A DNA stretch of 64,000 nt from Camelus ferus (lineage: Eukaryota): the NCBI RefSeq assembly GCF_009834535.1, contig NC_045696.1:74960001-75024000 (forward strand). Direction: 5' to 3'. Positions within the stretch are counted from its first letter, which is position 1. Every line of letters starts with the position of its first letter. This document shows, in pieces, positions 4,711 through 56,364 of this stretch. Under the pieces are notes generated by a model. It was not told the origin of the DNA, did no database searches, and saw only the letters and a list, made by a program, of their open reading frames with translations. The position numbers were made by a program, and so were the translations under genes.

Positions 4711-7605
4711 AAGGTCACACTTGAAATCAAGTACCACTCGAGGAGAGATAATTACCTTGACTTACAACACTGTAAAATGTGTGTGTAACCAGTGCCTCCT
4801 GGTGAAGACTTGGTCACGGTGGGTCAAACAGGACCAGAAATCCAGGGCTCTTGACCAGTCAAACAATTTCAGCTATTGTTCCCATTGGTTTCTGTTTCAG
4901 TTACCCAGTGAATTTTCTCTGTGCTGGGATAGGCCCAGTTCTGGGACTCTTGTGAGGTTGTATATAGCTCAGTGTAGCTCTCTGCTCTTGAACAAGTGCC
5001 CGAAGAAATGAATTAATACATGTAAAGCCCTGTAACTGTGCCTGGCTCATAGTAAGTGCTCAGTAAATGTTAGTCATTAGTATTATCACTTCAGAGCAGG
5101 AAGAACATCTACAGGGGGGTGACACTGGTTTCTCTGACACGAGCCTAGATCATAGGGTCAGTGTCCATTTGATGAGCAAAGATGGCTGGAGTTAGTCATG
5201 ACAAAAAAAAAAGGAAGTTCCCATCCAAGACTCTGTAAGTGTGAGGCAGAGATCATACTCCTTTGTTTGTTTTTCCTGCAAAGAGAGTGTAAGATCAGAT
5301 ATGACTACTTTTGACAGTTTAAATTGTTTCTCAATTCAGCAAAAGCTACCCATACTAGGATGAGTGTTCAGTTAGGGGTTCATTTATTCTGCTACAAATA
5401 CACAGAGACACACAAAGAAGGTAGGCTGTTGTGTACTTTTTTGGTTGTTGCAAGTGATTTGTGCATCTCTAAATTTGAAAAGAGAGTTATAGTTCTCATG
5501 AACCTGGGGAGTTTCAGCTGCCAAAGAATTCTTAGCTATAATAGTGTGTAATTGAGAGAACATGAAAATGTGTGAGGAAGTGGTTTCTCCAGCATGGTGA
5601 AAGGGAGAGACAGTTCTCTTTTCCCTTGAGTAGAGCATTTGTTAAATGCAAAAGAAAATGACTGTGGAGCCAGGAATCCATGATGCCAGCATTTTGCAGT
5701 AACATCTCCTTTCATCTCCAGATCTCTCAACAGTTGCAACAGTTTATGGGCACTAATTAAGTTTCACCATACTCATACAACTCACACTGAGTTTTATTTA
5801 CTTTCTTTTCACTAAGGAAAACCAGGGCAGGGGATGTTTAAAGGGTTACTTAAAGTTACAAAGCTCGGATTTGAATCCAGTACCCAAAGCCTCTGACGCA
5901 GCGAGGGAAGGGGCCCAGCTGGGGGAGGCTGGCTTTGCAGTTGACTCATGGCTTTTGTGGAGTAAGACGTGATCTCCAGCAACTCTGAGAGGAAAGAATA
6001 AGCTAGAGACTCAGGGAGGGTCTCAGGGACCAAGAGTGGGGAGCTCCATGCACCTGGTATCTCTTCTCACCACGCTCCTTCAGTCTTGGCTTGTGTGTTC
6101 CTGAGCAGATGCATTGGGATTGCAGTTCATACCAGCCGCTCTGGGCTCTTCCTGAGAGGTAGGCTGTGAGCCCTGAGTGGAGTATGTGTGTGGAGGGCAC
6201 TAGCTGTAGGGGTGGGAGGGGAGTCATCTGGTGTTGGTGAACAGAGGCCGCTCAGTTACCAAGTGAAGGGGCACCAGGAAGAAAATCATGAGGTACAAGG
6301 TTACTTTACTCCTTCTCACTCGCCGTCACGGACCTATGTAAAAGGAAGAAAAAACCAAGCACAGGCTAGGTCTAAGGTCAACCTCAAACGGCCAATTGTG
6401 CCAGCCACTCCTAGGACACATCTAGGCCCAGACTCGTCCAGGTCCCAGAATAAATCTGTCTGAGTCTATTGCAACTTTTGAATTCGGACTAAAAACACTT
6501 TAAAATAACTCACTTTCTCTCTTCACACCCTCTTAAGATAAATTTTTAAAGATTCTGCATGAGTATTTTCACTTAGGTGGAATTCGAATCATAAAATGGG
6601 ACAGTCCAGGAAGCCCCAGGAAAGGCAAGTACACATTCAAGTAGGGGTCTCAAGGGCTCAGAAAGCACCGTATTTCTGAGGTTGAATCAAACACATAAAA
6701 ATAGCAGCAAATCATTCAGTTCTTCAAAGAGAGTTATGCACCAGACTGCGGGGGATTCTACTAGCACATCAAAATCTGTAAAAGGAAAGTTATTATATTT
6801 TTATGAGACTGTTACAAGTAGGAAGCAGAAGGAAAAAAAATTCTTGTTGCTATCAGTTTTTATTCCGAATTGCATCAGTTCATTAAAAACAAATGATTTA
6901 CAAAGGACCTAGTCTATAACTCTAATAGAAAATTAGTACAAATCAGAAGTATGTAAGTATATTTTTTCATTATACAATATTAATACAGCTGTAGGTAACA
7001 GTCAGTGTGACTATATGTACATGATGTGTATAGATGAGATTATGCATGATGAATGTATGCCCAATGCTTTGGACAATACCAAGATAGTATTACCTTTACT
7101 AAAAAACGTACAGCAGAAGCAGTCTACCTAGCAGTCTGCCACCCTCGTTCAGTAAGCTGCTGGGAGTAGTTTATGTTCATGATTCGGTGGTATTGAAAGG
7201 TCCCACGGATGTCTTTCAATGATCAAAAAAAGGTAAAATAGTTGATACAGTGTAAGAAAACCTTTGATATAGTTTTAATGGTGAGTTATTTTACAGTCCT
7301 TTAAGTCTTGAGAATTTGGGAACTCACGTATGGTATAGAAACTGACTCTCTTAATCAGAACATGCTATTAACGAGAAAAACCCGTCCTCTAAGTTTACAC
7401 TCTAACAGACAATTTGTGAAAAAGGAAATGCGACCAGGACAAAACATTTCCTCTTTTTATAAACCTTGAAGTGAATGTGTCCTTTACCAGTTAAATAGGG
7501 TCCCTTGGGCCTCAGAACTTTCCACCAGCCTTCAGGTCTCTATGGTGATGCACCAGCCGCCGAAGCAGAACCCAGGTGATAGGGTGGCACAGGCACTGGG
7601 CCACC

Positions 7606-7848
7606 ATGGGGAGAAGGCCTGGCTGCAGAAAACCACTCAGGGTCTTCTTGAGCTTTCTGGACGGACTGTTCCACCTTGCCAGGAGCCTGCAGGGCCACCA
7701 GGACCGGCTGGCCCTGACCTCCCACCTCTCCAGGAGAGTGGGCGGCCCGCACTGCAAGGTGGCAGCCCTGGACACGCAGGTGCTTCTGATGGCTGCCTGC
7801 ACCAGGGACTGGTGGCTCCCCTGGGACCCTACTTACGTTGATGCTTAA
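7606..7848 (+). CDS. Candidate 80-aa upstream ORF in the KCNMB3 exon 1a leader
   Basis: GCCACCATGG Kozak context; 63 of 80 codons end in G or C; ends 73 nt before the beta3a ATG. Confidence 0.35.
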   Translation: MGRRPGCRKPLRVFLSFLDGLFHLARSLQGHQDRLALTSHLSRRVGGPHCKVAALDTQVLLMAACTRDWWLPWDPTYVDA

Positions 7849-7921
7849 ACTTCACCCTTCTCGCCCCTCAGAGGTTACAACTCAGGTGAAAGGAGTCCAT
7901 TTTGCCTAGCCCCCTGGTCTC

Positions 7922-7983
7922 ATGCAGCCGTTCAGCATCCCCGTTCAAATTACCCTCCAGGATGGCCGGAGACGCCAGGGGAG
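7922..7983 (+). CDS. KCNMB3: KCNMB3 exon 1a, coding part (beta3a N-terminus)
   Basis: MQPFSIPVQITLQDGRRRQG-R, then AG|GTAAGT donor; recalled human beta3a is MQPFSIPVQITLQGSRRRQGR. Confidence 0.93.
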
Positions 7984-8339
7984 GTAAGTCACCACCAGAA
8001 ATTCTCAGTTTTCATGGGCATCTCGCTGAGCAAGTGGCTGGAAGGAGAGCGGCCATAACGAGTTTGGAGGTTGAGTTTGGTTTTCATCCTCTGAGGGTGT
8101 CCCCTCACCAAGGCTCCCAGGAGGAGGCTTCCAGCAGCGCTGCTGTCCGGGTATTGCGTCCTTGTTGGCATCCTCCTCTAGGCTGCAGTTTCTTGGTGGC
8201 TAGGGATCTTTTTAAACTCATCTTTGGCTTGCCAGCAGTAGAATGTGGCCCAGCACATAGTTGGCACTCAACAAATATCTCTTGGTTAAATGAAGGAATG
8301 AAGAAATTACCCTAGCATTTGGCCACATTGGTGAGTCAT

Positions 8340-8470
8340 GCTTAGGCCCTGGCATCACTGCCCGGGTTCAGATCCCAGCTCCATCGCTTAACCAGCTGTA
8401 GGATGGTGGGCAAGTCACTTACCCTCTCTCTGCCCTGTCCCTAGTCTGCGAATGGAGATAGTAACGGCCT
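8340..8470 (+). mobile_element. MIR SINE
   Basis: gggttcagatcccagctccatcgcttaaccagctgt...gggcaagtcacttaccctctct core. Confidence 0.7.
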
Positions 8471-9889
8471 CTCCTGCCTTAGCGTGCTCTCCGTGTACTG
8501 CTCCCTAGACTACTCCACTTGACATCTCAGCTGTTGTTACTGGCCACCCACTCTCTTCCTGAAGGGGGAAGTGAGGTAGTTAGGTTATCCTGAGAACCTC
8601 TTTTGTCCCTGGGGGGATGCAAAGCAGAGGGGCCGAGAGCCTTGTGTGAAGCCTGCACTGCTGCCTGCCCGGGTGCGGGGCAGTGGAGCAGTGAGAAGTG
8701 GGCACCAGCACTGAGAGAGGAGTGGTGCCTGAGGCTGTCTGAGGAATAAGATAGTAGAAGCTTGCCAGCTTACTCCTTGGAGGGGTGCATCTCACAGCTA
8801 AGTTCACTCACTGTATCTGGAAACCAGGATGATTTGTTAGTGGCTCACGTGAAACTAGGAGCTGAAAAAGTGGAAACAGTAATAATCACAATGGCCATCA
8901 CATTGCCCGCTCCTGCCCTTCTTTAACTACCCTCATGGGTATCTGAGAAAGGGAATGCGAGAGAGTGAGAGGTAGGGGTTTGGATGGAGTTTGGGGCTGG
9001 AGGAGGGAGGAACAGACAGAAGAAAGAGATAGAGGCAAAACACTTCTCTCCTAGAAATGAACTAATGCTTTTGTGAGGCTATTAAAATGAATCACTGTAT
9101 GGCAGTAGATCAAATGACAAACATGCGAGGGAACAAGTTTTAATGCCCCATTCACAACATAATTAACTAGCTATAAGAGCAGTTGTGTTCTCCCCAAAGC
9201 ACTACAGTATCCCATTCTCACTTCTCAAGTACCCAATTGGATTATTGCTTTTGCCTCTGGCTCAACTTGACGAACCATGTTGACTTTTCTCAGCATTATT
9301 TGCTGTTTCAAAAGTTGTTAAATAATTTTTTAATTAAAAAAATAGAAAGGTAAAAATGATTACCCAAATCTTCTTTGCAACACAAATTACAAGGAACTAT
9401 TAGTTTAACATACCCAAAGCTTAGAAATTACATACACACATGAAATGAGTGTCAGATGAATTATCAAACTTTGATGAACTGCAGCATCTTTCTAGGGAAC
9501 ATTTTCTGCACAAGTTGTAGTTGTAGGAAGGAGAGGCTGCTGGCTTCCGCAGGGATCACAACCAGATGAACTTGTTTAAGCTCTTTGAAAGTGAGTTTGC
9601 CTCAGGCTAAGCCAGAAGGCACCTGTAGCAGCCTGTGGTAGTCGGAGCTGGTGGGAAAGTCAGTTCTGTCTGCAGGAAGCAACAGGAAGGGGTGGGTACT
9701 GCCTTGACTATGAATAAAACATCTCCAGGTAACACATTGGTTAGAAGTGGAGATTATTGCTGGCAAAAAGAAGTGAAAATGCTACTCACTCATCTCACTG
9801 GCCGGAGAGCAAAATTAGGTCACTGTTAAGTGCTTTGAGGTCCTTGGATGAAAGGTGCGTGTAAATACCACAAAGGTAATTACAGGGCT

Positions 9890-12790
9890 GTTTGTGGTCT
9901 CAGAAAACTGGAAACAACCTAATATTCAACAATAAGGAAATGGTTAAGGAAATTATAGCATATCCAATTGATGGAATATTATGTAGCCAGCGGAAGGGTT
10001 ACAAAGAATTGCTACCAACATGGGAAAGTGGTTATTATGTTAAGTAAAGAAGACAAGCTTAAAAAAGAACTGTATCCAGTATGATCTCATTCTGTTTAAA
10101 ACAATATTATAGAGGAGTAAAATAACCTAGTAAATGAATAATAATTATCTCTAAGTGGTAGAACTGTAGGTGATTTTTATTCTTTTTTCTAGACTTATCC
10201 ATATTTTCCAAGTTTCATAAAATGAGGATATGAAATAAGTTCATTACTTTTACAAATCATTTGACATTTGTTGAGGCTTTCTTTATGGCTCATTTTGTGG
10301 TTAGGTCTCATAATTGTGTTCATGTATGTTTGAGAAGAATATATATTCTGTGGGGGACAGTATTCTATCTTTATTATTTAGATAGAACGTTTTATTGCTT
10401 TGCTCAGATCAATTTCCTTACTGATGTGTCTGGTTGAGCTATCAGTTACTGGGGGAGTATATAAAAATATCTCAGTCTGATAGTAGATTTTATCTATTTC
10501 TTCCTACAGTTCTGTCAATGAGGCAATGCTATTAGGCACATATAAATTAGTATCATTATATCTTCCAGGTGAATTGAACCTTCAATCAATGTCACTACTT
10601 TCTTTACTTTTAGTAAAGCTTTTTAATCTTAAAGTTCATATCAGCTTGCTTTTCATTAGACTTTGCCTAACAAATTTCAACCGTTTTATGTATCTGTGTG
10701 TTTTATATGTAAAAACATGTATGTTTAAATCCAGTCTGACAATCTTTTATCTTTTAATTGGATCATTTAATCCATTAAGATTTATTGTAATTACTGATGT
10801 ACTTAGATTTATTTTATCATGTTTTTGTGCTTTCTGTCTTGACTTTTCTGCGAGGTTTTTTGTTTCCCCCTCTTCTTTCAGATTGATTTTTTACCCCCTT
10901 TCCATTCTTCTTTCTCTACTAGTTTGAAAGTTATTTGACCTATTTGTACTCTTTTAGTGGATAGTCCAGAAATTTTAGCATGCAGACTTGAACTTATCAA
11001 AGTGAAATCAATTTTTATCATCCTTTTGAAAACTATCAGGAATTTAGAACACACCAACACCATCACCCCCTTTAAGTTAGATACTCTGATAATGTGTTTG
11101 GCTTTTGACCCCTCAAGCCGACATCATCATTATCATTTTAATTATTTAAAAAAAATTAAAAATGATTTAAATTTAAATATTTAACTATTGAAATTTCATT
11201 GTTATTGTTTTATAAGGTTAGTATCTTTACTTACCTGTTCACTCCTGTAATTGCTCTTCATTTCTGGGTAAATCTCAGCTCTTCCATCTGGATTGTTTTC
11301 CCTCTGCCTAAAGTAAATGCTTGACCTTTTCCTTTAGTGAAGGTCTATTGATGGCAAACTCAGCTTTGTGTGTGTCTGAAATGTCTTTATTTTGTGCTTA
11401 TTCTTGAGAGATGTTTGCTAGGTGTAGGGTTCCGTGGTTACTTCCTCTCAGCTTATTGACAATATTCCTGTCTTCTGGCTTCCATTCTTGTTACAGAGAA
11501 ATAAGCTCTCAGTCTAATTATCATTCCTGTGAAGTTAATCTCTTTTTCCTCTGGCTGCTTTTAAGAATTTCTCTTGTCTTGGTATCTGTGCAGTTTCTCA
11601 GTGATGTGGGTTTCTTTTTATTTTATCCTCCTTGGCTCCTGGAATCTGTGGACAAGGTCTTCATCACATTTCTGGAATTTTATTGTCTTTTAAAAGTAAT
11701 GCTTGGCTTCTCTTTTTCTGGAATTCTGAATGGGCTTTATGTTAGATTTTTTCTATCTCCCATGCTTCTTAGCCTTTCTTCAATATTTTCCATCAAGGAA
11801 ATCTCTCTGTATTATACTCTAGCTATTTTGCAGATCCATCTATTTACTAATTATCTTTTCAAATGTGTCTAATCTACTGTTAAATTGGTCCACCAAGTTT
11901 TTAGTTCAGTTATTTTATTTTTCATCTTTAGAAATTCTATTTGGTTCTTTTTAATATTGGCTTGGCCATATTTTAGAATCTTTTGCTCTTTCTAATATTT
12001 CCAGTCCCTTTATTTCTTTAAATTATTGCTGATTACATTTGTATCAGTAGATAATTGAATATACAAATGTATATGTTACATTTTTATATGTTGTCCAAAA
12101 TCTGAAGTTTTGGGGGGGATCTGATTCTGTTGTCTATTTTTCTCACTCAAAGGCCCTTATTATGGTTTTATGATTTTGGAATGAGGGCACATACTCCTCA
12201 AAACTCCACAGGATTCCTTCGAGGCCTAGGTTAGAGGTGGGTGCCTCCAGACAAGTTATGTGTTTGCTTCTGCTAGCTGCCAGAGGGCACTAACTACTTG
12301 AGACAACATTGGATGAAATCCTTAGCTTGAGGTTTTTCGATTTCCCAGATAGTGTGAATTCAGGCTATAAACTCTCCTGAAGATCACCTTATGGTTATGA
12401 AACCTCGGGGAGATTATAGTTTTCCTTCTCTACCCAGTGTCAAGGTTTGAGAAAGGCGTTTTCCTGGTAACTCCTAGGGAGCTGAGTGTGGGAGGTGGTT
12501 ATTTCCAGGGCAGCCTCACACTGAGCATGTGGTCTTATGGGTCCCAGCTCTGGCTGAGAGCAGTAAGTCCCATACCTTGGATAGGCCCTGGGTGTTCTCT
12601 CCTGTCCCAGGGTCCTCCCCTTAGACTGTGAGGCTGAAGCTCAAGGTCACCAAGTTCTGCAAATGCCCTCAAGGTTAACATTTACTTCAGTCCACTTTCC
12701 CCTCTGGGTTCCTACTTTCACATAGTTTTTTGTCCTTCAAGTATTTCAAACTCTTTTTTTAAGCTTTGACCAGAATTTTTATTGTTAGCA
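9890..12790. mobile_element. Old L1M-type LINE fragments (sense 3' end ~9.9-10.25 kb, then antisense body)
   Basis: ggaaacaacctaat...ggaatattatgtagcc L1 3' motif, then a long T-rich degenerate antisense L1 body; boundaries approximate. Confidence 0.6.
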
Positions 12791-12838
12791 GTTAAAATGT
12801 ATGTCTAGTCCATTATGTGGATAAAATAGAAGGCTGTT

Positions 12839-13653
12839 TGTTTTGGTTTTGCTTTTTTTTTTTTTCTCTTTTTCTTTCAAAATTTTCTTTTCTTAAATTA
12901 CAGTTGGTATATAATGTTGTATTAATTTCTAATGTAAGGCATAGTGACTCATTTATATATATATACACACACATACACATATACATATATTCCTTTTCAT
13001 ATTCTTTTTCATTATAGGCTATTACAAGGTATTGAATATAATTCCCTGTGCTATACAGTATAAACTTGTTGTTTATCTAGTTTATAATATAGTAGTTAGT
13101 ATCTGCAAATCCTGGACTCCCAATTTATCCCTCCACCCCCACTTTCCTCCTGGTAACCATAAGTTTGTTTTCTGTATCTGTGAGTCTGTTTCTGTTTTGT
13201 AAATAAGTTCATTTGTGTCATTTTTTAAAGATTCCACGTGTAAGTGATATCATATGGTATTTTTCTTTCTCTTTCTGGCTTACTTCACTTAATATGACAA
13301 TCTCCAGGTCCATCCATGTTGCTGCAAATGGCATTATTTTATTCTTTTTTATGGCTGAGTAGTATTCCATTGTATATCACGACTTCTTTATCTAATCTTC
13401 TGTTGATGGACATTTGTTTCCATGTCTTGGCTATTGTAAATTGTGCTGCTGTGGACATTGGGGTGCATGTATCTTTTCAAATTAGAATATCCCCTGGATA
13501 TATGCCCAGGAATGGGATTGCTGGATCATATGTTAAGTCTATTTTTTGTTTTTTAAGGAATCTCCATACTGTTTTTCATAGTGGCTGCAGCAAACTACAT
13601 TCCCACCACCAGAATAGGAGGGTTCCCTTTTCTCCACACCCTCTCCAGCATTT
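12839..13653 (-). mobile_element. 5'-truncated, relatively young L1 with target-site duplication
   Basis: T-rich tail on the left, L1 3' UTR and ORF2-end motifs (catccatgttgctgcaaatggc, gggattgctggatcata). TSD AATAGAAGGCTGTT (12825-12838) / AATAGAAGCCTGTT (13654-13667). Confidence 0.88.
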
Positions 13654-14639
13654 AATAGAAGCCTGTTATTATTACAACACTAAAAATATATCTGTGTATT
13701 CATTTTTAGCAATTATTTTATGTTTTCTTTCCTCCCCCAAAATGACTTCTTCACAAGGGGTTTAATTTTTCATAAAGCCTTAGAACAAAGTGGGCAGAAA
13801 TATTAGAAAGACCAAAAAAAGTCTAGTACACTACCATGTCTCTCTTATTCCTAAACTAGATCAGAATCAGTTTTGTACATCATACACTTATAATTGGGTA
13901 GGTTAAATCAGTGTGTTAGAAATGGCAGACAGGCCTCATAATAAGCCCCTTCCTGCATGGATCCCATGGTTCTCTGACAGTAAACCTCCAAGACCCCTTA
14001 CAATGCAAAGCAACTAAAGCCCAGTTTTAGAACATGGAGGAAATACAGGGCATTGGGTTTTGGGAACCTACAAAATATCCAAACCTTCCTTCAGGGCCAA
14101 AAATCTTTTATAAATCAATATATCATATTTGTTGAGAAAATATAAAACATACTGGCTCAAATTTATTTTAAAAAAATTTCCCATGCCCATTCTCTGAGGG
14201 TGGGATGATAGAGGGTGCATAACATATCAAAGGAGATGAAACACCCCCAAACCAGGGCCTCGATTCCTAAAGCAGTATTAACGACAGGGTGTTGCCATCT
14301 ATTGAGAGCAGTGCTTCCCAGAGTAGGCTCCTGGAACATACTAGGTTGCCTGACATTCTGCTCACTGTCTACGGTCCGAGATATTGTCAGGGAGAAAGGG
14401 GACTAGGGGAAGAAAAGGGGAAGGATGAGGGATAAAATATTAAATACACTTTTGGAAGAAAACAGCTAGCAATTCCCTTGACTGGGTTTTTGCTCAGCTT
14501 CAAAATTTAGTAAGCTTTTTACACAGCTCGATGGAGCCTGAGTTTTTACCATTATGACTGCATTTGTTTGGCTTAAGATTTTGTTAAGCCTCTTAAAATG
14601 GAAATACCTCTGGGACACAAACTCCTGCTGAGCAGGGAG

Positions 14640-14928
14640 CGGCAAATCAGTGACTGTCCACAGGAAGTGGTGGGACTGTGGCAAATTGGAGAAGACACCC
14701 CTGTCCACAGGGGCAGCCTCTCCTCACTTGGCCAGCTGTTCATAGGCAGGAATGTGGGCCTTGTGATTTTTTTTCAGAAGTAGAAATCAGCACTTTTGTG
14801 AGACATTTCATGATTTTTAAAGTGTTAACAACTAATCTGGCATTTGAAAAAAACAACCCAGGAAAGGCCAAACAAAACACATCTGTGGGCTGGGATGCTG
14901 TCCATGGGTCACCAGTTGGCGACCTTTG
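14640..14928. mobile_element. hAT-Charlie relic (MER102-like)
   Basis: Terminus ggccaaacaaaacacatctgtgggc...ccagttggcgacctttg. Confidence 0.5.
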
Positions 14929-15467
14929 TTTTGGACTTTGTTCACTGGATGCCCCATTGTGAAAGAATTTATCACCTCCTTTGCTAGAGCAGAGCAAAAG
15001 GAGAGAAGACACGTAGGGCCACTCACGCAGAGCTGTGCGTGGACAGAGAGGAGCCGTGGGTGAGGGGAGAAGCCAGCAGCGAGGCCCTCCCTGTTCTGAG
15101 TGACTGGGCCGTGGGCCAGGAAGCCCTGTGGTAGATCTGCTGCCTTTCCAGCAGCTGGATATGAAAGCACAAGTCAGATCCCACTTCAGGATGCTGTTAA
15201 TTCCAAATGTGAACTTTTGGAGTCATTCTTTCCATATGGAATTCATAAAAGAATGTAAAAAATATTTTCAGGGGGAATATGTAATATCCATGACAGATAA
15301 GTAAGTTCCTAACACTATTTACATAAAATGAATGAAAGCTACTTAGAGGCAATTCTTTCCTAGTCATTGATGAAACAGATCTCCAAAGACTTCATCCCTG
15401 GCAACATTCCTTAGTCTTGTTTGTTACATGAAAAAAAATTTATAACAGATCACTTTAGGTTGTTCAG

Positions 15468-15535
15468 ATGGACTTTAACCAAGCTCTGAATATAAGATCT
15501 CATTGTGTTGCATCATACCTGCTCACAACTCTCAG
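15468..15535 (+). CDS. KCNMB3: KCNMB3 beta3d-like alternative first coding exon
   Basis: MDFNQALNIRSHCVASYLLTTL-R, 68 nt, phase 2, AG|GTGGGC donor; recalled human beta3d is MDFSPSSELGFHFVAFILLTRHR. Confidence 0.6.
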
Positions 15536-15619
15536 GTGGGCAGCAAATGGGACCCTCCCTCCACTCACCATGGGTTGGTAAATATTCCCACTTTTTTTCC
15601 CCCCAACATTTGTCAAAAA

Positions 15620-16670
15620 CAGCTTTATTTATGACTGAAATACGACAGCTGGCACATGTTTAATGTGAACCATTTGATAAGTTTTGACACATGTGATAGT
15701 TTTGGGTGAAACCATCACACCATCAAGATAAGACCATGAAAGTTTCCTTGTGCCCCTTTGCATCCTCCCCTACCCCCGAGTAACCGCTAATCTGCTTTCT
15801 GTCACTAAAGATACTTTTGCATTTTCTACAATTTTATGTGAATGGAATCATACAGTGTGGCCTCTTTTGTTTGTCTGGCTTTTTTCACTCAGCGTAATTA
15901 TTCTGAGGTTTGTCCTGTGTGCCATGTTTGTCAGTTCTGTTGCTGAGTAGCTTTCCATTGTGTGAATGTAAGCGTTTATCTGTATACTAGCTGATAAAAA
16001 TTTGGGTTGTTTCCAGCTTGGGGCTACTTACAAATGGGGTGCCATGAACATCTATGTACAAGTCTTTGTATGATCATGTGCTTTCATTTTGCTTGGTAAA
16101 TAAATACCTAGGAATGGAATACCTGGGTCCTATGGTCCCATATATGTTTCACTTTTTAAGACAATACCAACTGTTTTACAAAGTGGTTATACCGTTTTAT
16201 ATTCCCATCAATAGTGTATGAGAGTTCCAGTTCTCCAACACTTGGTATTGTGTCTTTTTGGTTACACCGCATTCGAGTGGGGGTGATGTGGTATCTCAGT
16301 GTGGTTTTAATATACAGGTTACTAATGAGCATCTTTTTATGTGCTTATTTGACATTTATACATCCTCTTTGAAGTGTCCGTTGAAGTCATTAATTGGGTT
16401 GTGTGGCATTATTGAGCTTGAGAGCTTTTTATGTATTCTGGATTCGAGTCCTTTAAAATGATGTGCCAATATTTTTTTCCAGCCTGGGCTGGCTTTTCAT
16501 TCTTCTAACAGTCTTTTGAAGAGCAGAAATTTTTAATTTTGATGAAGTCCGATTTAACAATTTGTTCTCTTTCAGATTGTGCTTGTAGTATTGTATCTAA
16601 GAAATATTTGCCTAAACCAAGGTCATAAAGGATTTCTTTTATGTTTTCTACAAGAAATGTAGGAATTTAA
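15620..16670 (-). mobile_element. Older L1 (L1MB-like) 3' fragment
   Basis: aaccgctaatctgctttctgtc, aatggaatcatacagt, tttgggttgtttccag, ttttaattttgatgaagtcc. Confidence 0.8.
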
Positions 16671-16705
16671 AGTTAGGGTTTTGTTTTGTTTTTGTAAAGA
16701 AATAG

Positions 16706-16822
16706 TTTATTTATTTATTTGTTTAATTTAAGAAATTATAGTTGACCTACAATACTGTGCTTGTTTAAGTTGTGCAACATAGTGATCTAGTATTTCTGTA
16801 CAACACAAAATGACCATCACTG
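16706..16822 (-). mobile_element. Short L1 3'-end fragment abutting the KCNMB3 beta3c start position
   Basis: (TTTA)n tail, then tatagttgacctacaatactgtg...tgtgcaacatagtgat...atgaccatcac. Confidence 0.65.
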
Positions 16823-16872
16823 TTCCCACTTTATGAGCTTATTGAAATATCTCCTTCCCACTACCCCCAAAG

Positions 16873-17061
16873 GACAGCCTTTTCTACCTCAGGGAAGAGA
16901 AACATAGACCACAGTGATGGAGACCAACCATATGTGCATAAGAAGCTGCCATCCAATGCTGGAGAGGACCGAGCCATGCTGCTAGGGTTTGCAATGATGG
17001 CCTTCTCTGTCCTAATGTTTTTCTTGCTTGGAGTAACCATCCTAAAGCCCTTCATGCTCAG
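16873..17061 (+). CDS. KCNMB3: KCNMB3 exon 2 (cytosolic N-terminus and TM1)
   Basis: TAFSTSGKRNIDHSDGD...AGEDRAMLLGFAMMAFSVLMFFLLGVTILKPFML; CAAAG| acceptor, AG|GTAAGA donor; 189 nt, open. Confidence 0.95.
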
Positions 17062-19450
17062 GTAAGAAAGAGAAAGGAGATCCAGAATTTCCAAATCAAA
17101 CCATATGCAGGCACAGTGGTAGAGGAGAGGAGGGGAGGGGAGACTGGCTTTGGTTTCTCCAGCCCTCTTGACCTTTGTCTAGGACAGGGAAGATAGAGTT
17201 CCTGGTCCTCGGTCAGTGCTAGGAGGCAGCTGGGTTTGGAGGAAGAGGTGGTAAGAGAGTGGAAGAGACTCCTTTGTTGCTCCCCTCCTCCAATCTCAAA
17301 AATTCTTTCAACAATGTATCCATGTACTGTATATTCCTGCAAGTAATAAATTCTTTCTTTAGCATGCAGATATCCCAGGGAAGGGTTAGGTTAAGCCTCT
17401 ATATGAGCACAACAAGTTTTTTGAGTCTGAGTTTTTTGAGCTTGATAATTATCAACTACTAGTGCATAGTAGTTGCTCAACAAAAGTTTTCTTCCTTTTA
17501 AGTAATTTCTTTATTAAATACATGTAATAAATTATCATTCTTACATATATAGTACATGTCAAATATATACTGTATTGTATCCTATTTAAACCTACAGCAA
17601 ACCCATGATGGAAGATTGTTTTATTATTTTAATTTTCACTTTATGAATGAGAAAGCTGAGGCTCCAAAAGGGTTACGTGCCCAAGATCAAATAGGCAGTG
17701 AAGAATTTGCCTATTCATTCTGACATAAGACTCGTTGCCTCCTAACACTTAAATGGAGTTTGCTGCCATGAGGGGGATGGGAGTTTTGTTAGGGCTGTAG
17801 AGGAGCTGTTTAATGTTGGAGATTGGCTCACACACATGGGGTGCCTTGGAGGAGGGCAGCACTGGGTAGGGGGAATGCAAGGGTCACTTCCCCTTTGGCT
17901 AGCCAGAGAGCAACAGAAGGCCCAGGGGAGTGGGATGAGGGAGGCCCTGGAGTTCAGTGAAGAAAAGGGATCATAGGGAAGGAATTGTGTGGCCTGCTTT
18001 TGTTATTTATCAGACTCATCTCCCACCATTCCTAGGTTCCCATTGTTAGGGCAATAATGTGGGGGTCCTCCTCCACTGCAGCACACAGTGCCACTATTAG
18101 GGAAATTTTCTCTCTGACATTAGCAACCAGGAGAATCTGTTCTCCTGATCAACCAGCTTACTTTAATCTAATGGATACCAGGAACCTTGTGTCTGGCTGT
18201 ATTTTCTCCATCTCTTTGGCTGCTAGGAAGCTCAGAGCCAAATTTGTGGCCCAGTTCTCATAACTATCAAGGATCTTATGGTCTGGGGGTTACATGTTTA
18301 TACCTCACTCTTGACTTCATACTAGCTTTCTACCTTCCTTTTCCTGTTAATCTATTTTCCATCTATATATCTGCATTATGTATATCTATATAAGTTCAGT
18401 ATATATGTGTGTGTGCACATGTGTGTTTGCGTGCAGGTCAGATTATTTTTTAAAAATATGATGTGATATATTTGGGAGATGGTTTGAAGATACCTTCTGT
18501 AAGCTAACACTAAACTCTTGTTCATATTTAAGATACACTTTTCTAAGCATTTCTGGAAGTTGTTTGCTGCAGGTAATTAAGGGACTGTTTAAGAGCAGTG
18601 AGTTCTCATCTCTGTTGCCTTGTGATCTTGTGCCATCAGAGAGTAGTCTTGCTTCATAAAAGCTGATAGTTGAGAGACTTGGGTAGCTCATACCTATCCC
18701 CCCAACTCCCTTAAACCCTCATCTCTCAATGAAATGATGGATTTTGTCTGTTTGTAGACAGACACACAATGCTATTGAGGGACATGCTGATTTTTTCAGC
18801 CCTAAATACATTTCTGGTTCGACCTGAAAGCCTCCGGCCTTGACCCTTGTGCATAGGGAGGAGTGTCGCACTCTCTATACTGGAGCTTCCTAAAATCTTC
18901 AAAGAAGGTTCAAATCAAACTCAGTTTGGCACTTGGTTAGGATTGAAGTTTTAACACAGAAAGGCCGACAGGTCTAAATATTTTAAGATGCCTGGTCTAA
19001 ATATGTAGAGAAAGTAATTTTGTGAAAAGGCAGGCCACTGCAAAACCTGTGAAAGAACCTCATTTCCCATTTTTGTATTTTCACTTGCCCAACATTTTAT
19101 TCTTCTAAGGCCATTTCTAGTGATATTTTTATGCCCTGGGCATGCAATCATGTTAAAAACTGCATTGTGTGTCTCAGGTTTTTCCTTAATAAAGAAAAAT
19201 GATTACATGCAATCCAAGATCTTCATGGGAGTGCAGTCTGAACCTAGCTAAGCAGTGCTTTTCAAACATTCTGACTTTCAAATTTGCTTCTTGTGTTTAA
19301 GACACTGGGAAGCAGCACAGGGACTCACCTAGACGTGGGCATGAGGATATGTGAGTAGCTGGACCTGCACATTCAACCAAACAAAGCGTTTCCTCTCACT
19401 CTCATTTACTTTATCTGGGGCTTGTTCTCTATTTTATACACATATGTTCT

Positions 19451-19581
19451 TTTTCTTTTTTAGAAAAACTTTTTTGGGGGTAATTAGGTTTATCTATTTA
19501 CTTTTAATGGACGCACTGGGGATTGAACCCAGGACCTTGTGCATGCTAAGCATACACTCTACCCCTGAGCTATACCCGCCC
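19451..19581 (-). mobile_element. Camelid tRNA-derived SINE (Vic-1 type)
   Basis: Minus strand reads GGGCGGGTATAGCTCAGGGGTAGAGTGTATGCTTAGCATGCACAAGGTCCTGGGTTCAATCCCCAGT...AAACCTAATTACCCCC plus an A-rich tail; Pol III A and B boxes visible. Confidence 0.85.
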
Positions 19582-20094
19582 ACAAATGCCCTTCCTCTTC
19601 CGCACCACCACGAAGTCTTCATGAGCAGGAGTTCTGTCTGCCCCTTCTCACTGCACCTATGACGTTCTGTGTATGTGCAAATTCTCATGGAATGTTTTCC
19701 AAGTGAAAATTAATTCGGTACATTATTTGTTGAGCCTCTACTATGTGAAAGGCACTGTGCTTTGTGTTTTGAGGAACATAAAGATGAATAGGATGTAGCT
19801 CCTGACCTTAAGGAACTTACTACTAATAGTAAAAACATGGTAGTTTTCTAATGAGAGATTCCTCATATGATTTGCATTTGCCTCTCGAAGTAGAGTGGGT
19901 AAATGGAAATGTTCCTTGTTAATACAACTTTAGAGGCTAGATTGACTAAGAGTCCTGTGGTTGGACTCCTTCCAAAGGCACATTTTCATCAGGACAAGCC
20001 AGTGGGCGCATCTTGAGATGAGGAGGCAGGAGAGATTATAAGATTTCTGAGTGTGAATCTCGGTGGTTACAGATTGAGGATACTGTTGCTCAAA

Positions 20095-20260
20095 GATGGT
20101 TCTCCAAATACTTGCATCTTAAATACTGTTACATATATGGATTCCTGGGCCCCAGCTTGCATCAGCTGAACCTGAATCTCTGGTCTTAGAATCTACATTT
20201 TAACAAATTCTTCATTCTAACATACCTACTCGGGTGATTCTAAAGTCCGAAAACCATTGA
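20095..20260. mobile_element. MER5-like hAT relic
   Basis: tggttctc...gattcctgggcccc...tgaatctctgg...cattttaacaa...ggtgattct...aaaccattg. Confidence 0.55.
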
Positions 20261-20491
20261 CCTACAATGAGAAATATGCTAGGAGGTCATAACTGAGATG
20301 GAACCCAGCACTTTGCTGCTATTTATCCCCTGCTGCATGGCCCCCCATGCTCCCTAGTCATTCAGTGCCTTCTGTAATGGTCCTGCATTGCTTTGAGATG
20401 GACAAATGCCTCAGATTACCACATTAGAAATACAGAACTAAATTTTCTAGGGCTGAAAACCATTTCTTTTTTTTTTTTTTCCAAATTGAAG

Positions 20492-20687
20492 CACTCAGAG
20501 AGAAGCAGCGAACTGCACCATCATCCACACACACATCACGGACTGGACGGACTGCGCTTTCAGCTGTGGGGCGGACTGCCGCGGTCAGGGCAAGTACCCG
20601 TGTCTGCAGGTGCTTGTGAACCTCACCCATTCAGGGCAGAAAGCTCTCCTACATTATAACGAAGTGGCTGTCCAGACAAATTCCAAG
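20492..20687 (+). CDS. KCNMB3: KCNMB3 exon 3 (Cys-rich extracellular loop)
   Basis: TQREAANCTIIHTHITDWTDCAFSCGADCRGQGKYPCLQVLVNLTHSGQKALLHYNEVAVQTNSK; AAG|GTAAGG donor; 196 nt, open. Confidence 0.95.
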
Positions 20688-21824
20688 GTAAGGTCAAGTT
20701 TATGTAACGAAAGAGTTCTAATCACAGCAACCTTTCCATGCCAGACTGTTCCTAGCAGGGTGCAGTATCCAGGCTCATTTCTAGATAAACCTGCTTCCTT
20801 CCAGTGAACGTTTTGACAGTGGCCAAATTAGGCTAAATGAAGCTAAAAACACTGGGGAGGAAAAATGGGGTATATAGAAAAGAGTGGAATTATTCCAATT
20901 TCACAAACTGTTATCTGGAATTTAAAGACAGGGCCAATGAACAGTCTTACTTATGGAGGTCGCATTCCCCATCATATCAAAAATGTTAAAATATTCTCAC
21001 AGCCCTCCTTAAATCAAACATATAATTTTTCTTATCAAAGAAATTTAAAGATTATCCTTTAAAGGATACTCAGTTGGTTCATATGACTTAAAGTGTACAT
21101 TTTCACCTAACTATAAAAGTTGAATTGTATTAGATTAGTTGACATGTGATACTTTGTTGTGTTTCTTTAAGCACTAATTTCAGTCTGATGATTTTGGTTT
21201 TCTTTTTGGATGCAATAATTTTCAAGGTCTCAAATATTTTTGTAGGCCCTTGAGTGCCTAGTGGATATGGTAATAAAGCTTTTTTAAAAAGAATCACCAG
21301 CTGATGGAGCTTCCTTCTCTCCACTGGTTGTGCCTCCCAGGAACCAAAGCCCACGTACGGCCCCCTCTCCATGGGCCTAGAACAAAAGCCTCAATGTGTT
21401 ATCCTTTAGGGAAAGAGTTTACTACAGATGGTAGAGGCATTAATAGGTGTTGAAGGCACATAAAGAGCTCAGTATATATTTGTTGAACGGACAAATAGAT
21501 TCATCAAGTTATTATCCAGGAAGAGAGCGAGGCCCTGCATGTAGGGAAGAGCATGGTCCTTATGAAGATGGTCACTGCCTCTTGTACTATGTCTTTATTC
21601 TAAGAATTCTGTCCCACATCCCTGTTTAGTGCTCAAAAATGTCCATTTCATTCTTTGCTCTCCTGGCAACCCTTCCCCAGGAGCTATGAAATAGGTTTTA
21701 TCACCTTCTGAGATGAAAATTCCTAACAGCTTCAGTCTGAAGTGATTTCAGAATTAAAACTGTTGTTTAAGTGCTTGGTTTCAGAGGCAGTGCCCTCATC
21801 TTTCTTCCCCCTCTGTACTCCTAG

Positions 21825-22197
21825 TGCTTCTACACACCTGAGTGCCACCAAGATAGAAAAGATTTGCTCAACAGTGCTCTGGGCATAAAGGAATTCTTCG
21901 ATCTCAAAAACGGGACCCCCTTTTCATGCTTCTACAGTCCAGACAGCCAGTCTGAAGATGTTATTCTCATTAAAAAGTATGACCGAATGGTTATCTTCCA
22001 TTGTTTTGGCCGTCACTGACTCTGGTAGGTGGTGCCCTGATAGTTGGCGTGGTGCGATTAACACAGCACCTGTCCCTACTGTGTGAAAAATACAGCGCTG
22101 CAGAGACGAGGTAAGTGGCAAAGTACCTTACATGGCCCGGCACCAGCTCTAACTGTGGGGTGTGGGGAGGAGCAAAGGAAGGAGCAGGCAATCTTAA
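21825..22197 (+). pseudogene. KCNMB3: KCNMB3 exon 4 (loop, TM2, tail) with two 4-nt deletions and a nonsense codon
   Basis: Reads CFYTPECHQDRKDLLNS...KKYDRMVIFHC-FGRH*. TM2 (WPSLTLVGGALIVGVVRL) survives in another frame. The ancestral stop is TAA at 22195-22197. Confidence 0.88.
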
Positions 22198-23275
22198 GAT
22201 GGTGGCCATATTCAAGTCCTGACCTTCAGATAACCTGCCATTTCTGCTCTTGAGGACCTAATTATGCCTACTTGCAAACTAACCATGTAGAGGCAAAGTT
22301 AAGTATGAATATTTCATGGGCAGAAGAAAATTTGTAGTCTCATTATGCATTCATTCTATTTATTTTATAAATACATAAAAATTCACCATCATTTCTACTC
22401 CAAATCTCTCCACATGAGCCAAGGAAGCACTTTTTGTTTCCATGTGGCAAAATGAGCTCAAGGTCTTTGTGCTTCATCTGCTATCAACTCACACTGCAGA
22501 ACTAGTTATATCTGACTTGTCACTGTGGAAGTAGATGAGGGTTTCTAACCTGGTGAGCGCTGAACGGCCAATCGAGTTCTATGCAATAGAGTTCACATTA
22601 AAACATTTCTCAAAAAATTCTTAGTGAAGAACAGTTCACTACTCACTATAGGAAGATAATAATCTGATAATTTCAGAAAACATGGACCTACTATTTTACT
22701 TCACCATGAGAAAAGAGAGAAGCCGCTGCCTGTAAAATTCACTAAGCTTAGCATTATTTGTACTTAACCTTGCCATGGACCATGTAATTTTTCTTTCAGC
22801 AACATTTTTTCCAGTTGATTATGCTTTCCGTAAGCTCATTTTGTTGTGTACATGCTGGAGGGAGCAGGAGAGATGGCTAGAAATGTGTTGTGAAGCAGGG
22901 AGAAGCTACACTGGATGGAATTTAACATTCATTTCAGATAACCCGCATCACAGAAAAGTCCCACATCGATAGTCAACAACTGTCCGTACTTTAATTAATG
23001 AATCAACCACGATTATTAAATAATGAATGTCACAAAACTCTCCCAACAAGTGCTTTCCAGATTAAGCTGAATATACGAGTTGGAAACAGAGTTCATTCTG
23101 AAAACCATTGTACCTCAAAGTAGCTTTACAATTTTACTAAGAAATCTTATAGCAAGGGCAACAGAAAGAATGACTTTTGAAGCAACCTTTATATGTAGAT
23201 GTTATCAAAACAGAAACTTTGACTCTAAGCCAATTTAATGCCTTTTAGCAAATAATTGTAAGTCACACATTATTA

Positions 23276-23298
23276 AATAAAATGAATAATTAAATAAA
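23276..23298 (+). terminator. Candidate KCNMB3 polyadenylation signals
   Basis: Two AATAAA (23276-23281, 23293-23298) with a T-rich tract downstream (~23328-23348), about 1.1 kb after the ancestral stop. Confidence 0.45.
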
Positions 23299-23644
23299 GC
23301 AATACTGACTTGACCAGCAATGAACAATTTTGTATTTTCTCTTCTTTCTAGTGAGGAATAGTGGAGAGAACATGTGTCTTAAAGTAGGATTTTTTCGAGA
23401 TTTTTTAATAATTACAACTTCTCAGATATGTGTCCTTGGGTAATTCAGCTGAATTGTTTGAGCCTCTCTTCTCAACAATAAATAGGGATAAGCTCTTCTT
23501 TCACGGGGTTATTTTAAAGGAAGAAACAAGGTAGGATATGTGGAACACCTAGCTTAATTTCTGGTACCTAGTGGAGGTGCATAAAAATGTTAGTAGATGA
23601 AAAAAACTTCTGCTAAGTTTTCAATTTTCAGTCAGCCTTCTCCC

Positions 23645-24301
23645 TCTTCTGGGGATGTACCCTAAAGAAATGAAATCAGTACCTCCAAGAAATACCTGCT
23701 TTCCATGTTCACTGCAGCACTATTCACAATAGCCAAGGTATAGAAACAATCTAAGTATCCATCGACAGATGAATAAAGAAATCGTGATTATATATATAAA
23801 ATGTGTATACATATATGGAATATTTTTCAGCCTTAAAAAAATGAGATCCTGCCATTTGCAACAACATGGATGAACCTGGAGGTCACTGTGCTAAGTAAAA
23901 TAATCCAGACACAGAAAGGAAAGAGCTGCATTTCACTTATACATGGAATCTAAAAATGTTGAATACATAGCAGAGTGCAGAATGCTAGTTACCTGGGGTG
24001 GGGGAGGGGAGCTGGGGAGATGTTGGTTAATGGGTACAGACTTTGTTATAAGATGAATAAATCTTCAGATCTAACGTACAGCATAATGACTATAGTTAAT
24101 ACTGTATTGAATACTGGAAACGTACTAAGAGAATAGATTGTAGGTGCTTGCATCACACACACACACACACACACACAAGGTAACTGTGTGAGGAGATTAT
24201 GTGTTAATTAGCTTGACTGCAGTAAACATTTCACCGTGTGTATGTCTATCAAATCATCATGTTGTAAATCTTAAGTATATACAATTCTTAGTAAAAATAA
24301 A
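23645..24301 (+). mobile_element. L1 3' end (L1MA/MB-like) with an internal (CA)n, in the KCNMB3-PIK3CA gap
   Basis: catgttcactgcagcactattcacaatagccaag, gccatttgcaacaacatggatgaacctggagg; ends at AATAAA 24296-24301. Confidence 0.85.
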
Positions 24302-25342
24302 TTCAGTCAGTCTTGGTACCTTTCATTGGGCGGTGGGGGTAGGAAGCTGCAGGAGAGGATTCCTCTCCACCTTCTCTTGGCTAAATATGATATGCATTTA
24401 AGGTCCAGAACATGCTGTTTAAAAGGTTGTAGTAAATTGTTTTGTATGCCAAAGACTTCTCTGTAATAAAATGTATGTATGCATACATATTTTAAATCAT
24501 TCTGCAAACTGAGATTCTCTAGATTTCTTAAGTGAATGGCACATCTCTATTCCACTTCTAAGTTTGACACCCATCTAACGATATGCAGTTCTTGAGATTT
24601 TTCTCCTAACAAATTCCGAACAATTAATTTGAAACCTAAAATGTATGAAAGTGTGAAATCTTAAGTGTTTCAGTTACTACAGTTTTCCATTCATATAGTG
24701 GCTACTTAGTTCACCTCAGGAAAGAGACATTATGCTTGGAGAACAAAGTCAATTTAGAACAATGTTATCTCAAAGTCACTCAAACCACTTGGCAAATAAA
24801 CAACATTTTAGCAATTACTTGCTGTTAATTGCTTAGAAGTACTAAGTATCAATGCCCATGTGCATTACTAGTCCAAGAAAAGCCCAGACTTACCTTTTGC
24901 AAGGTTTGTGGTAACTGAAAGCAAAACCAGTTTGCTTCTAGTCTAACTTCACTTCTAGGTTATTGTCATCAACTGACTTGGGAAAAAGTCTGTCCACAGA
25001 CACATTCCTACATGCATGTGTAATGCATTTATTTCTGCTTAAAATACAAGCATTTAGTTCTTCATGCTTAAAGGAAGTTAATATTTAAATAGTATTTTTG
25101 TAATATTCATCACTTTACTGGGACAGAAAAATTGGCTTTTATGGCATAATAGTTTGAGATTTTCAATCAGCTATATTTAGTCATTATTGATAAGAACTCA
25201 AATTCAGCTAAATTTTGATTAGCGACACTGATTTGCTTCTAAGTATTCAAAATAAATGACAAAATATCATTATCACAGTTTTTTGTTAAAATATATAGTA
25301 GACTAAGGATTGTTTGGACACAAATAAAAGTAATTTTTTTTT

Positions 25343-25348
25343 TTTAAT
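25343..25348 (-). terminator. Distal polyadenylation signal (ATTAAA) of PIK3CA
   Basis: TTTAAT on the plus strand, at the position matching the recalled human mRNA end. Confidence 0.65.
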
Positions 25349-25354
25349 AAACAG

Positions 25355-25420
25355 TTTGTTGTTACAGACTGCAAAGTTAAAGAAAAGCAGACAGTGACAG
25401 TTTCTGATGAGAACAAATAG
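25355..25420 (+). CDS. KCNMB3: KCNMB3 alternative terminal exon (isoform e-like), antisense to the PIK3CA 3' end
   Basis: T12-AATAAACAG| acceptor, then FVVTDCKVKEKQTVTVSDENK*, phase 0 like the exon 3 donor. The recalled human short-isoform tail is RDVTDCRVKEKQTLTVSDEHKQ. Confidence 0.55.
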   Translation, partial: FVVTDCKVKEKQTVTVSDENK

Positions 25421-28400
25421 TAAGTGCAGTCACAGGCCAAATTTCTTGCCAGGAACAGCAAGACTGGGAAGAAGTCTTGAATTTAGTGGCACTGTATCAT
25501 TCTGTATTCTCAGTACAACACATGCATCTTGCTGTGTCAGATACTTTCAGGGCCATCATTAAAGAACATTTAAAAACATTTTTCTTCTAATCAATGCAGT
25601 ATACCAAAGGACTCCAACCCACTGAGTGACAAAATATAGAAAAATAGATTTGCTACAAAAAATGGGGCTAAAGAAGGTGGTGGGAGCTCCTTTTTGAAGC
25701 TTCCATTTGGTGTGTCAGTAGTCTTCTTTTGGTAGTGCCACATTGCCCAAGATGTTAAACTGTTATGTTCCAAAAGGACATATTCTTTTGGATATTATTC
25801 CAACCAAAAAAGTCAGAGGAATGAATCACACTGAAACCATTAATTGCATCTGAAACTTTGGTTCCATAACCAAAAATATTTCTAGGAATCAGATGAAGGT
25901 TAAGTTTTCCAACCACTTTTAGGAATATAAATTTAATCTGATAAGGGGCTTTTTCTTATGAAATCAATAATGACATATTTGGAAATACATACTACAATTA
26001 AGAAGTTTAGTCTTATTAAAGATATTCTGAGAGAATATAGTAAAATAATGAAGGTTTCTGCCTCCTTGCTAGCCTAGAAGCATTAACAAAAGTTAAGAAT
26101 CACCTAAAAAATATACAAGGCTCTTAGCATAACAACAAAATTATTGTAGTAAGAGATTAAATAATGTTTTAGATAGATTCATAAACTTAACTGGCCTACA
26201 AAATGCATTAAAAACTCTTCCCATACTTAACCAACATGAGGACTGGAGTCTATTGTTGGTAGTGAAAATCCGTTACCCAACTAATACATACAGTGGACTG
26301 GTTTTACTTTTCCCCTCCCTGCTAAAACTCTTAAATGGAGTTGTGCAAAAATCAAGTCAGAAGATTTTCTTATAGCTCATAACTGTCACTTTTTGCTAAC
26401 TAGCATGGGTGAAATATGACCATATCTAAGCCAAGCAAAAGGAATGGTGCTGCATTGATAAAAAGTGTAAAACCTTACTCAAATGGAGTACTTGAACGAA
26501 ATGAGCTTGTTAAAAAACTAACATCCCAACTTGGGAAACTCCTAATCAATTATAAACTCTTCTGAATTTTAGAACCTTGATGTTTATACCTTTTATAAAA
26601 GATGCCTCAACGAAGGCTAGCAAGCAATGTGCATACAAATTGAAATGTCTGCAAACACACACACACCAGTTTCACTAACAATAAAGAAAACAAAACTAAT
26701 TTCAAATGTTGAATTCAATGAACCTCCTGGCACTACTGCCTTTTTCAAGTGGCTGGAGCAATGATTAAATTTTAACCAAAAATTTTTCTTAGTATCTCCA
26801 ATGCCATTACAAACAAGGCATGCAACTCTTTTACAAATCTAAAATATAGTGCTCTGTAATATCAGAGCCAGAAGTATTGAATTGTGACTCATCTGTTTTT
26901 TTTTTCCTTATTAACCCGAGGTAGAGTTACCAATCTAAATCCAATTTTATCAGGACCATACTTATATTGAGCTAAACGCTATAATCTTTTCAGAAAGTGA
27001 AAATAACTTTTAAGAGAAAAAAAAAGGCTTCCCAGGTCATGGCACATAAGATACATTTACAATTTTTAATGTAGTAATTAAAAAATAAAAATGGTTTGCT
27101 TTGTATTTTAAAGAACAGCCCAGCTGTATTATCCTCTATCACCAAGAATTATCATCTGAGGATGTTGTCAATGCTGAATTGTATAGTTCAGCCTTCACAA
27201 TCCCCTTGATGAAGAGATAATTCCCTCATGGTATGCACAATATACTCTTACAACTTCTAGCCTTGTCTTAGTGCTTGATCTGAGCAGGAAGAATGTAATT
27301 CATTCAAACAACAACTCCCTGTTTTGCCCCCTCCTTCCACATGCCCCTCTTCTCAAAAACAACTCAAGTATGAAAGTTGTTTTTAAGTAGCAGAAGCACC
27401 ACAATCTATTTAACACCACATATGGTCTTTACACTGAAATATTTGTGATGTCTTGGACACCAAAATCAATTTTTAAGGTAGATTCTGAGTGTGAGGGTCC
27501 AGCCCAGATCTGCAGTTTTTGCGGACACAGAAACAAAAGGAACTTAAAAACATTCAGAAAAAGTGAACTTGCTGGCTTTAAAATAATGCTGGAAATTAAA
27601 TTTCCTCAAAGAGTTGGGAAGCATAGGCTATTGGTCAGGATATGAATTAAATGGATTTACAAATCATTAAGAAACAAATCCAAGTTTATGTACTGTGAAA
27701 TTTCTATGGTGTCTTTTAAATAGATAGGCTGCTCATAAATTCTTTTTTTGTAAATGCCAAATCACTCAATTTTTGCTGGAAAAAAGAATACAGATGGACT
27801 ATGTTTTACCTATGTGAAATCACCAATCTATTTAAAATCTAAGATAATATATACATTCTAACCAAATAATTGATTATTTTCCTGATTAATAAGAACTACA
27901 CTTTACACAAAATACTTTATCAGCAGCTGTTTTCTTCAAAAAACCAATAGTCATAGTTTCACAGTTGAAAAAGTTACACATTAAAATATTTTACAATTCA
28001 TTGTATATTCATCAGGTTCCCACTTCCTAAAGGGCTTGTAATATAAAGCAGATTAGAAGGGAAAACCCCAAAGTTGATCACTTTGACACTAAGTTTTACA
28101 GAGGACACTAAGAACCACAAAAAGGCTTAGGTTCTATTGTAAAACAGCGACCAAATTCCATTCTTTAAAAAAATCCAATTAGAAACATCTTTTAAAAAAA
28201 CCAAGTTCCACAATATGATTAACAGATTTCAAATTAACAGCAGTCTAAAAATCTTCAAAATGAACGATTATAGCTGAGAATATGATAAAAAGTTAAAACA
28301 TGATTTGTGAACAGTTGATTATTTCTTGCTAGAATGTGTTTAAATTAGGTTTTATTTTCTTTAAACCTGCTTTTCTTCTTTTCTCCAAAATAGTCATTAA

Positions 28401-31127: not shown

Positions 31128-56364
<25,237 letters not shown>

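Follow-up and report, generated by a model that had tools for sequence, protein, structure and literature searches.

Very likely loss of the canonical two-helix BK beta3 subunit (KCNMB3) in Old World camels

The canonical BK channel beta3 subunit, with its pair of membrane-spanning helices (TM1 and TM2), has very likely been lost in Old World camels, as judged from sequence comparisons. In the 64,000-nt stretch of the Camelus ferus genome analysed here (the window), the coding part of KCNMB3 exon 4 (21825..22197, plus strand), which encodes the rest of the extracellular loop, TM2 and the cytoplasmic tail, is the site of three lesions. The reading that we favour, with a probability of about 0.83, is that KCNMB3 was disabled by germline mutations, that its truncated products do not modulate BK channels and that the loss was tolerated under relaxed selection. 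An initial annotation of this DNA had proposed that canonical beta3 is lost, and this is supported by the presence of the first lesion in C. ferus, in the dromedary and in a Logan product, with the alpaca gene intact.

Lesion 1 is a 4-nt deletion that leaves 2 nt (22005..22006, plus strand) of the 6 between a Cys and a Trp codon, at about 76% of the length of the alpaca protein. On rereading, positions 21999-22019 are indeed CAT TGT TTT GGC CGT CAC TGA, 4 nt short, as first described. The exon-4 frame ends in VIFHCFGRH, with four out-of-frame codons followed by a premature TGA (22017..22019, plus strand), and the TM2 coding sequence WPSLTLVGGALIVGVVRL (22007..22060, plus strand) lies out of frame. 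The frame translations agree with the position originally proposed for the stop and with the displacement of TM2, as does Pfam CaKB (PF03185), which matches exon 4 in two back-to-back frames (profile positions 106-166, E 2.7e-18, and 167-195, E 5.1e-10). No transcript reading through exon 4 can encode TM2 in frame. Splicing exons 1a, 2, 3 and 4 gives a beta3a product of 213 aa with TM1 and the loop only, the length and content that had been predicted; one hydrophobic segment was found in the camel products versus two in alpaca, so that two transmembrane segments do not occur together in one camel chain. A C-W motif with two intervening residues was matched by 112 of 168 proteins, the pattern demanding this spacing and leaving other spacings invisible to the count. 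Most of the 56 misses are models that skip exon 4 or end differently; the others are a few substituted motifs and the three camel entries.

Two ways of restoring the TM2 frame were considered and rejected. Splicing would need an intron upstream of TM2; a donor-like site at 21977 precedes TM2 by only 30 nt, which leaves no room for an intron, and the sole strong donor found in exon 4 sits 3' of TM2. For ribosomal slippage, the T run is 4 nt long and no X XXY YYZ heptamer was seen by eye, and the two lesions further downstream would still cut the tail.

Lesion 2 is a second 4-nt deletion, located 3' of TM2, about 88% of the way along the alpaca protein, where 2 nt (22100..22101, plus strand) are left of 6; the longer spacing is kept in 62 of the 63 proteins matching the pattern at this site. 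Lesion 3 is an in-frame TAA (22150..22152, plus strand) at a position where alpaca has Lys, about 95% along the alpaca protein. Both the frame change after TM2 and the in-frame stop were revealed by tblastn with alpaca and other mammalian proteins. The two deletions total -8 nt, and the frame is not restored. The frameshift first noted at lesion 1 is thus upheld, but not as a single event, given that exon 4 carries three lesions. Alone, lesions 2 and 3 would merely shorten the tail. A comparable case is the human variant KCNMB3 p.Val256TyrfsTer4, a frameshift in the same last coding exon that cuts the same cytoplasmic tail as camel lesions 2 and 3, and this human tail truncation has been linked to epilepsy (PMC4811893). 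The human variant differs in being polymorphic and, to judge from its position, in sparing TM2, whereas lesion 1 of camels takes TM2 away and occurs in more than one species.

The rest of the gene is open. Exon 1a, which encodes the beta3a N-terminus (7922..7983, plus strand), has an open frame and a GT donor, and in tblastn 21 of 21 residues are identical to alpaca. Exon 2, encoding TM1 (16873..17061, plus strand), and exon 3, encoding the first half of the extracellular loop (20492..20687, plus strand), are both intact. An exon 1d-like segment (15468..15535, plus strand) serves as first exon in the C. ferus gene model, and the 1d-2-3-4 product spliced from the window equals protein EPY81925.1; this segment has diverged from primate beta3d, with 44% identity to the macaque N-terminus by tblastn. 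Downstream of exon 4, the alternative last exon of an exon-4-skipping, TM1-only isoform of 170 aa (25355..25420, plus strand) is also open and matches alpaca isoform X3 at 20 of 20 residues. The minus-strand open reading frames at 31131..56364, whose translations we take by name to be the coding exons of PIK3CA, lie tail to tail with KCNMB3, and because of this arrangement we regard the KCNMB3 studied here as the orthologous locus. PIK3CA and KCNMB3 have been called neighbours (PMC3694924). All KCNMB3 introns in the window are GT-AG, as befits an intron-containing gene beside PIK3CA and not a retrocopy. An exon-4 query matched alpaca beta-3 best (93%, with 95% of the query covered), and none of its 75 matches carried the name of another beta subunit.

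Several further features of the locus were observed. A stop in the 7904-7909 region lies 5' of the exon 1a ATG, within an in-frame extension that is translated by pig and cat models. The alternative last exon region (25343-25420) adjoins a minus-strand ATTAAA; assuming that the human PIK3CA 3' UTR is about 5.7 kb, a camel UTR of similar length would end at about this place, and the KCNMB3 and PIK3CA transcripts may overlap tail to tail. The end exons of several ruminant KCNMB3 models map to 36009-36642, inside PIK3CA on the opposite strand, and are probably read-through or annotation noise. No tandem repeats were found in a scan of positions 7000-27000. Window positions 16820-16872 match the human beta3c N-terminus, one residue shorter and with CTG in place of the human Met, in line with the description of beta3c as primate-specific (PMC2442174).

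The initial annotation had cautioned that an assembly error must be excluded. For lesion 1 this caveat is answered, as the same frameshifted tail ends C. ferus EPY81925.1, C. dromedarius KAB1283081.1 and one Logan product, and alpaca is intact. The alpaca KCNMB3 cluster has six members, all camelid. Its alpaca entries comprise two that are full length through TM2 and one exon-4-skipping form, and none of the six members is a full-length camel protein. The comparison across camelids thus places the lesion 1 end in both the dromedary and the C. ferus proteins. EPY81925.1 may come from the same assembly as the window or a related one. Between the dromedary protein and that of the two-humped type, 1 of 158 residues is different, and the dromedary entry therefore represents a separate haplotype. 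The Logan product is carried by four contigs, each at most 1389 nt long, whereas its exons span 5044 nt of genome, which points to spliced RNA containing the stop, with a retrocopy as a formal alternative.

Sequencing runs provide a second line of evidence. All 110 sampled words of 21500-22500 were present in 14 of the 24 runs listed, a result that attests the presence of this allele and not the absence of another. Nine of these 14 complete runs are flagged as a possible source and five are unflagged (four samples, two studies, one organism label). Assuming random word sampling, a given lesion would escape all sampled words with a probability of 0.02-0.04. Outside support for lesions 2 and 3 comes solely from these word shares, and sharing with the dromedary is seen for lesion 1 only. 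RNA runs, with word shares of 0.79 and 0.66 in two and below 0.2 in three, were not used as evidence.

An assembly or sequencing error in the T run therefore has next to no probability in our view. The site is T-rich, and yak and reindeer models break in an A run just upstream, so that the stretch may be error-prone; but the T run is only 4 long and the loss is of 4 nt, the lesion 1 end recurs in two other assemblies and in read-derived contigs, and runs unflagged as source contain all sampled words. It is somewhat more conceivable, yet still very unlikely, that the broken haplotype is unfixed, or reached the dromedary by hybridisation, and that intact Camelus alleles persist. Introgression between dromedary and Bactrian camels is documented (PMC7305198), and the word-complete runs speak for this allele and not against another. 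Against this, all three truncated cluster entries end alike, no camel member of the cluster is full length and the dromedary haplotype carries its own substitution.

Shared inheritance, if real, would also allow lesion 1 to be dated. The divergence of Old World from New World camels is put at about 16.3 million years ago (PMC12127551), and that of the three Old World species from one another at 4.4-7.3 million years ago (PMC7305198). Since the lesion is common to C. ferus and the dromedary and alpaca is intact, it probably arose between these two dates, if it is shared by descent. The proposal of a lineage-specific loss holds in that, among the camelids seen, only Old World camels are affected; it does not hold among mammals at large, where the camel case is not unique.

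Relaxed selection appears to be the best explanation for the decay of KCNMB3. Amino-acid changes number 8 in camel (the stop counted) and 5 in alpaca (p = 0.58), and because these counts are alike, it is the lesions that argue for relaxed selection. Otherwise invariant columns are changed at 7 of 91 positions in camel, 6 of 91 in alpaca, 6 of 97 in donkey and 6 of 97 in human. These similar counts give no support to faster protein change in camel, or to faster change that had already begun in the camelid ancestor. Exons 1a, 2 and 3 are lesion-free in camel.

The fate of the RNA may be mixed. It had been argued that the stop lies in the terminal exon and that the mRNA may thus escape nonsense-mediated decay (NMD), which fits some transcripts, given that spliced RNA bearing the stop exists, but would not fit any that use an internal donor. 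This consensus donor, GAG/GTAAGT (22108..22116, plus strand), is a candidate in camel and lies 91 nt past the premature stop. Exon 4 is left at the equivalent donor in models from goat, sheep, oryx and muntjac, and likewise in a Logan product. NMD targets are recognized by the 50-55-nt rule, and camel RNAs using this donor would be NMD targets because of the 91-nt distance, whereas transcripts ending in exon 4 should escape, as fits the Logan product. The Logan, dromedary and newest alpaca entries begin at the TM1 methionine, a hint that the inactivation exon 1a is often absent.

All three lesions spare the exon-4-skipping isoform, whose reading frame is open in the window (170 aa, ending at 25355-25420); that 3 of 3 lesions fall in exon 4 has p of about 0.10. 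Annotations of many mammals include a TM1-only isoform of 168-173 aa. Among the 53 proteins that carry its tail, 13 have it in a different frame, and for this reason the short isoform looks weakly constrained. Such splice isoforms (alpaca X3, macaque X5 and others) resemble the camel products in having one TM helix and a loop; in those species, however, exon 4 is skipped with a full-length form alongside, and the camel locus encodes no full-length form.

We consider it unlikely that these observations reflect an isoform switch and not a loss, with a working TM1-only beta3 of 213 or 170 aa that binds Slo1 via TM1 and either brings in the inactivation peptide or blocks the remaining beta subunits. 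The restriction of the lesions to exon 4, with exons 1a, 2, 3 and the alternative last exon open, the exact identity of exon 1a to alpaca, the wide annotation of the TM1-only isoform, the existence of spliced stop-bearing RNA and the many alpha contacts made by TM1 (PMC6934384) would all suit such a switch. Yet the clustering in exon 4 is not significant, the shifting tail frame argues against coding constraint, the short isoform has only the first half of the loop, the Logan product has the TM1 methionine as its start and no inactivation peptide, and split beta halves are inert (PMC4183656).

Structural and functional work on related subunits bears on what the truncated products could do. In the Slo1-beta4 structure, TM2 packs on TM1 and contacts S0 and S3 (PMC6934384), and the helices of beta2 and beta3 occupy the same places (PMC3536527). 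Our search of the PDB returned beta4 and beta2/beta4 chains only. Split beta1/beta4 halves are surface-expressed, yet the currents are those of alpha alone (PMC4183656), a result obtained with beta1/beta4 chimeras carrying half a loop and not with beta3. Against a complete loss of function, TM1 alone binds S1 in TOXCAT assays (PMC6934384, PMC4183656) and the camel product retains the entire loop. Loops of BK beta subunits have up to eight cysteines; the camel loop retains eight and the alpaca loop seven. Alpaca residue 109 is Arg at a loop cysteine that is kept in camel and in 13 of 14 outgroups; this need not disable alpaca beta3, since mouse beta3 works with seven cysteines (PMC3536527).

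We propose that lesion 1 was produced in the Camelus ancestor, when short T-rich repeats slipped against each other. Lesions 2 and 3 would have accumulated because exon 4 was under little or no selection. The camel locus is presumably still transcribed and spliced, and the resulting TM1-plus-loop products would be unable to build the hairpin of TM1 and TM2 with which a beta subunit docks on Slo1, leaving camel BK channels unmodulated by beta3. Most likely this loss was tolerated and not favoured, because no beta subunit is more divergent than beta3 and the gene is broken in other mammals too.

Beta3 is described as a fast-evolving subunit and the most divergent of the betas, though with a conserved exon 1a (PMC2442174). 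Its inactivation has been recorded in killer whale and manatee (PMC6760925, Table S5), where the comparison was made only against cow and elephant as sister species, and cetacean KCNMB3 is predicted to have fewer than two TM segments (PMC11266680). As in camel, the same gene is disabled there in a whole mammalian lineage; these cases were, however, listed as convergent aquatic losses (PMC6760925), whereas the camel is a desert mammal with an intact close relative. No cetacean KCNMB3 protein occurred among the matches and cluster members listed (for example, the best 120 of 128 matches and 15 of 51 members), so the whale case draws on the published papers. The dugong and Amazonian manatee records are flagged low quality.

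Other signs of decay or irregularity were seen in protein models. In the white-rhino model, the frame changes within TM2 and one loop cysteine is gone, which makes this a candidate independent loss; the black-rhino entries among those listed are short forms only. In the African elephant, 5 of 8 loop cysteines remain, 12 of 103 otherwise invariant columns are changed and the N-terminus of the model differs, possibly reflecting decay with an open frame. The yak and reindeer frame shifts, at about window positions 21972-21976 just upstream of lesion 1, may be homopolymer errors or real. A strict TM2 pattern was passed by 109 of 130 proteins with the exon-4 loop, and several of the misses are substitutions only; on the evidence of these proteins, KCNMB3 is kept intact in most mammals.

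An adaptive origin of the loss in Old World camels, tied for example to pancreatic or other secretory physiology, seems distinctly unlikely to us. Human beta3 message occurs in pancreas, kidney and spleen (PMC2442174), which would suit such a role, but aquatic mammals, and probably a rhino, have a broken gene as well, with no ecology obviously shared with camels, and no native beta3 current is known (PMC12646051). A broader conjecture has a small chance of being right: KCNMB3 would repeatedly shed its two-helix form (in camels, whales, sea cows and perhaps rhinos), and the confinement of camel decay to exon 4 would reflect a function of its own for the TM1-only product or for an exon-4-skipping transcript running into the 3' end of PIK3CA. 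If so, the open short isoform would also conceal such losses from annotation-based screens.

The loss of canonical BK beta3 in Old World camels seems not to have been described before, and it affects a gene with known losses in other mammals; we found no published report of camel KCNMB3 loss in the literature, TOGA tables and most subscription papers apart. From their accession pattern, we take XM_006210612.3 of alpaca and NM_001163677.2 of human to be the exon-4-skipping short isoform. In PMC12127551, these two accessions stand with three camel models in one orthogroup row, and a row built on the short isoform would explain why KCNMB3 was missed there. That screen probably passed over the gene because the exon-4-skipping, TM1-only isoform keeps it annotated as coding; KCNMB3 is absent from the text, six supplements and the 14- and 10-gene lists of that study, which also contains a 58-gene figure outside this comparison. 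One supplement of PMC7498332 likewise did not contain the camel loss. The Old World camel inactivations that are reported, among them CES3, CPA3, PLA2G2F, TAS2R16 and KRT24 (PMC12127551), similarly involve frameshifts shared within Camelus and not found in alpaca; unlike them, KCNMB3 is not listed in the parts of the study named above, and its orthogroup row apparently represents the short isoform.

In one respect, camel KCNMB3 is one more gene loss of a familiar type. It also points to a likely blind spot, in which a dead canonical product stays annotated as coding through an open exon-skipping isoform. A loss in a desert lineage weakens the case for seeing those of whale and manatee as a mark of aquatic life, and suggests instead that the gene is dispensable. 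As of 2025, reports of a native current with beta3 features are lacking (PMC12646051), and camels, set against alpacas, offer a natural null with a close intact control for the role of beta3 in BK channels.
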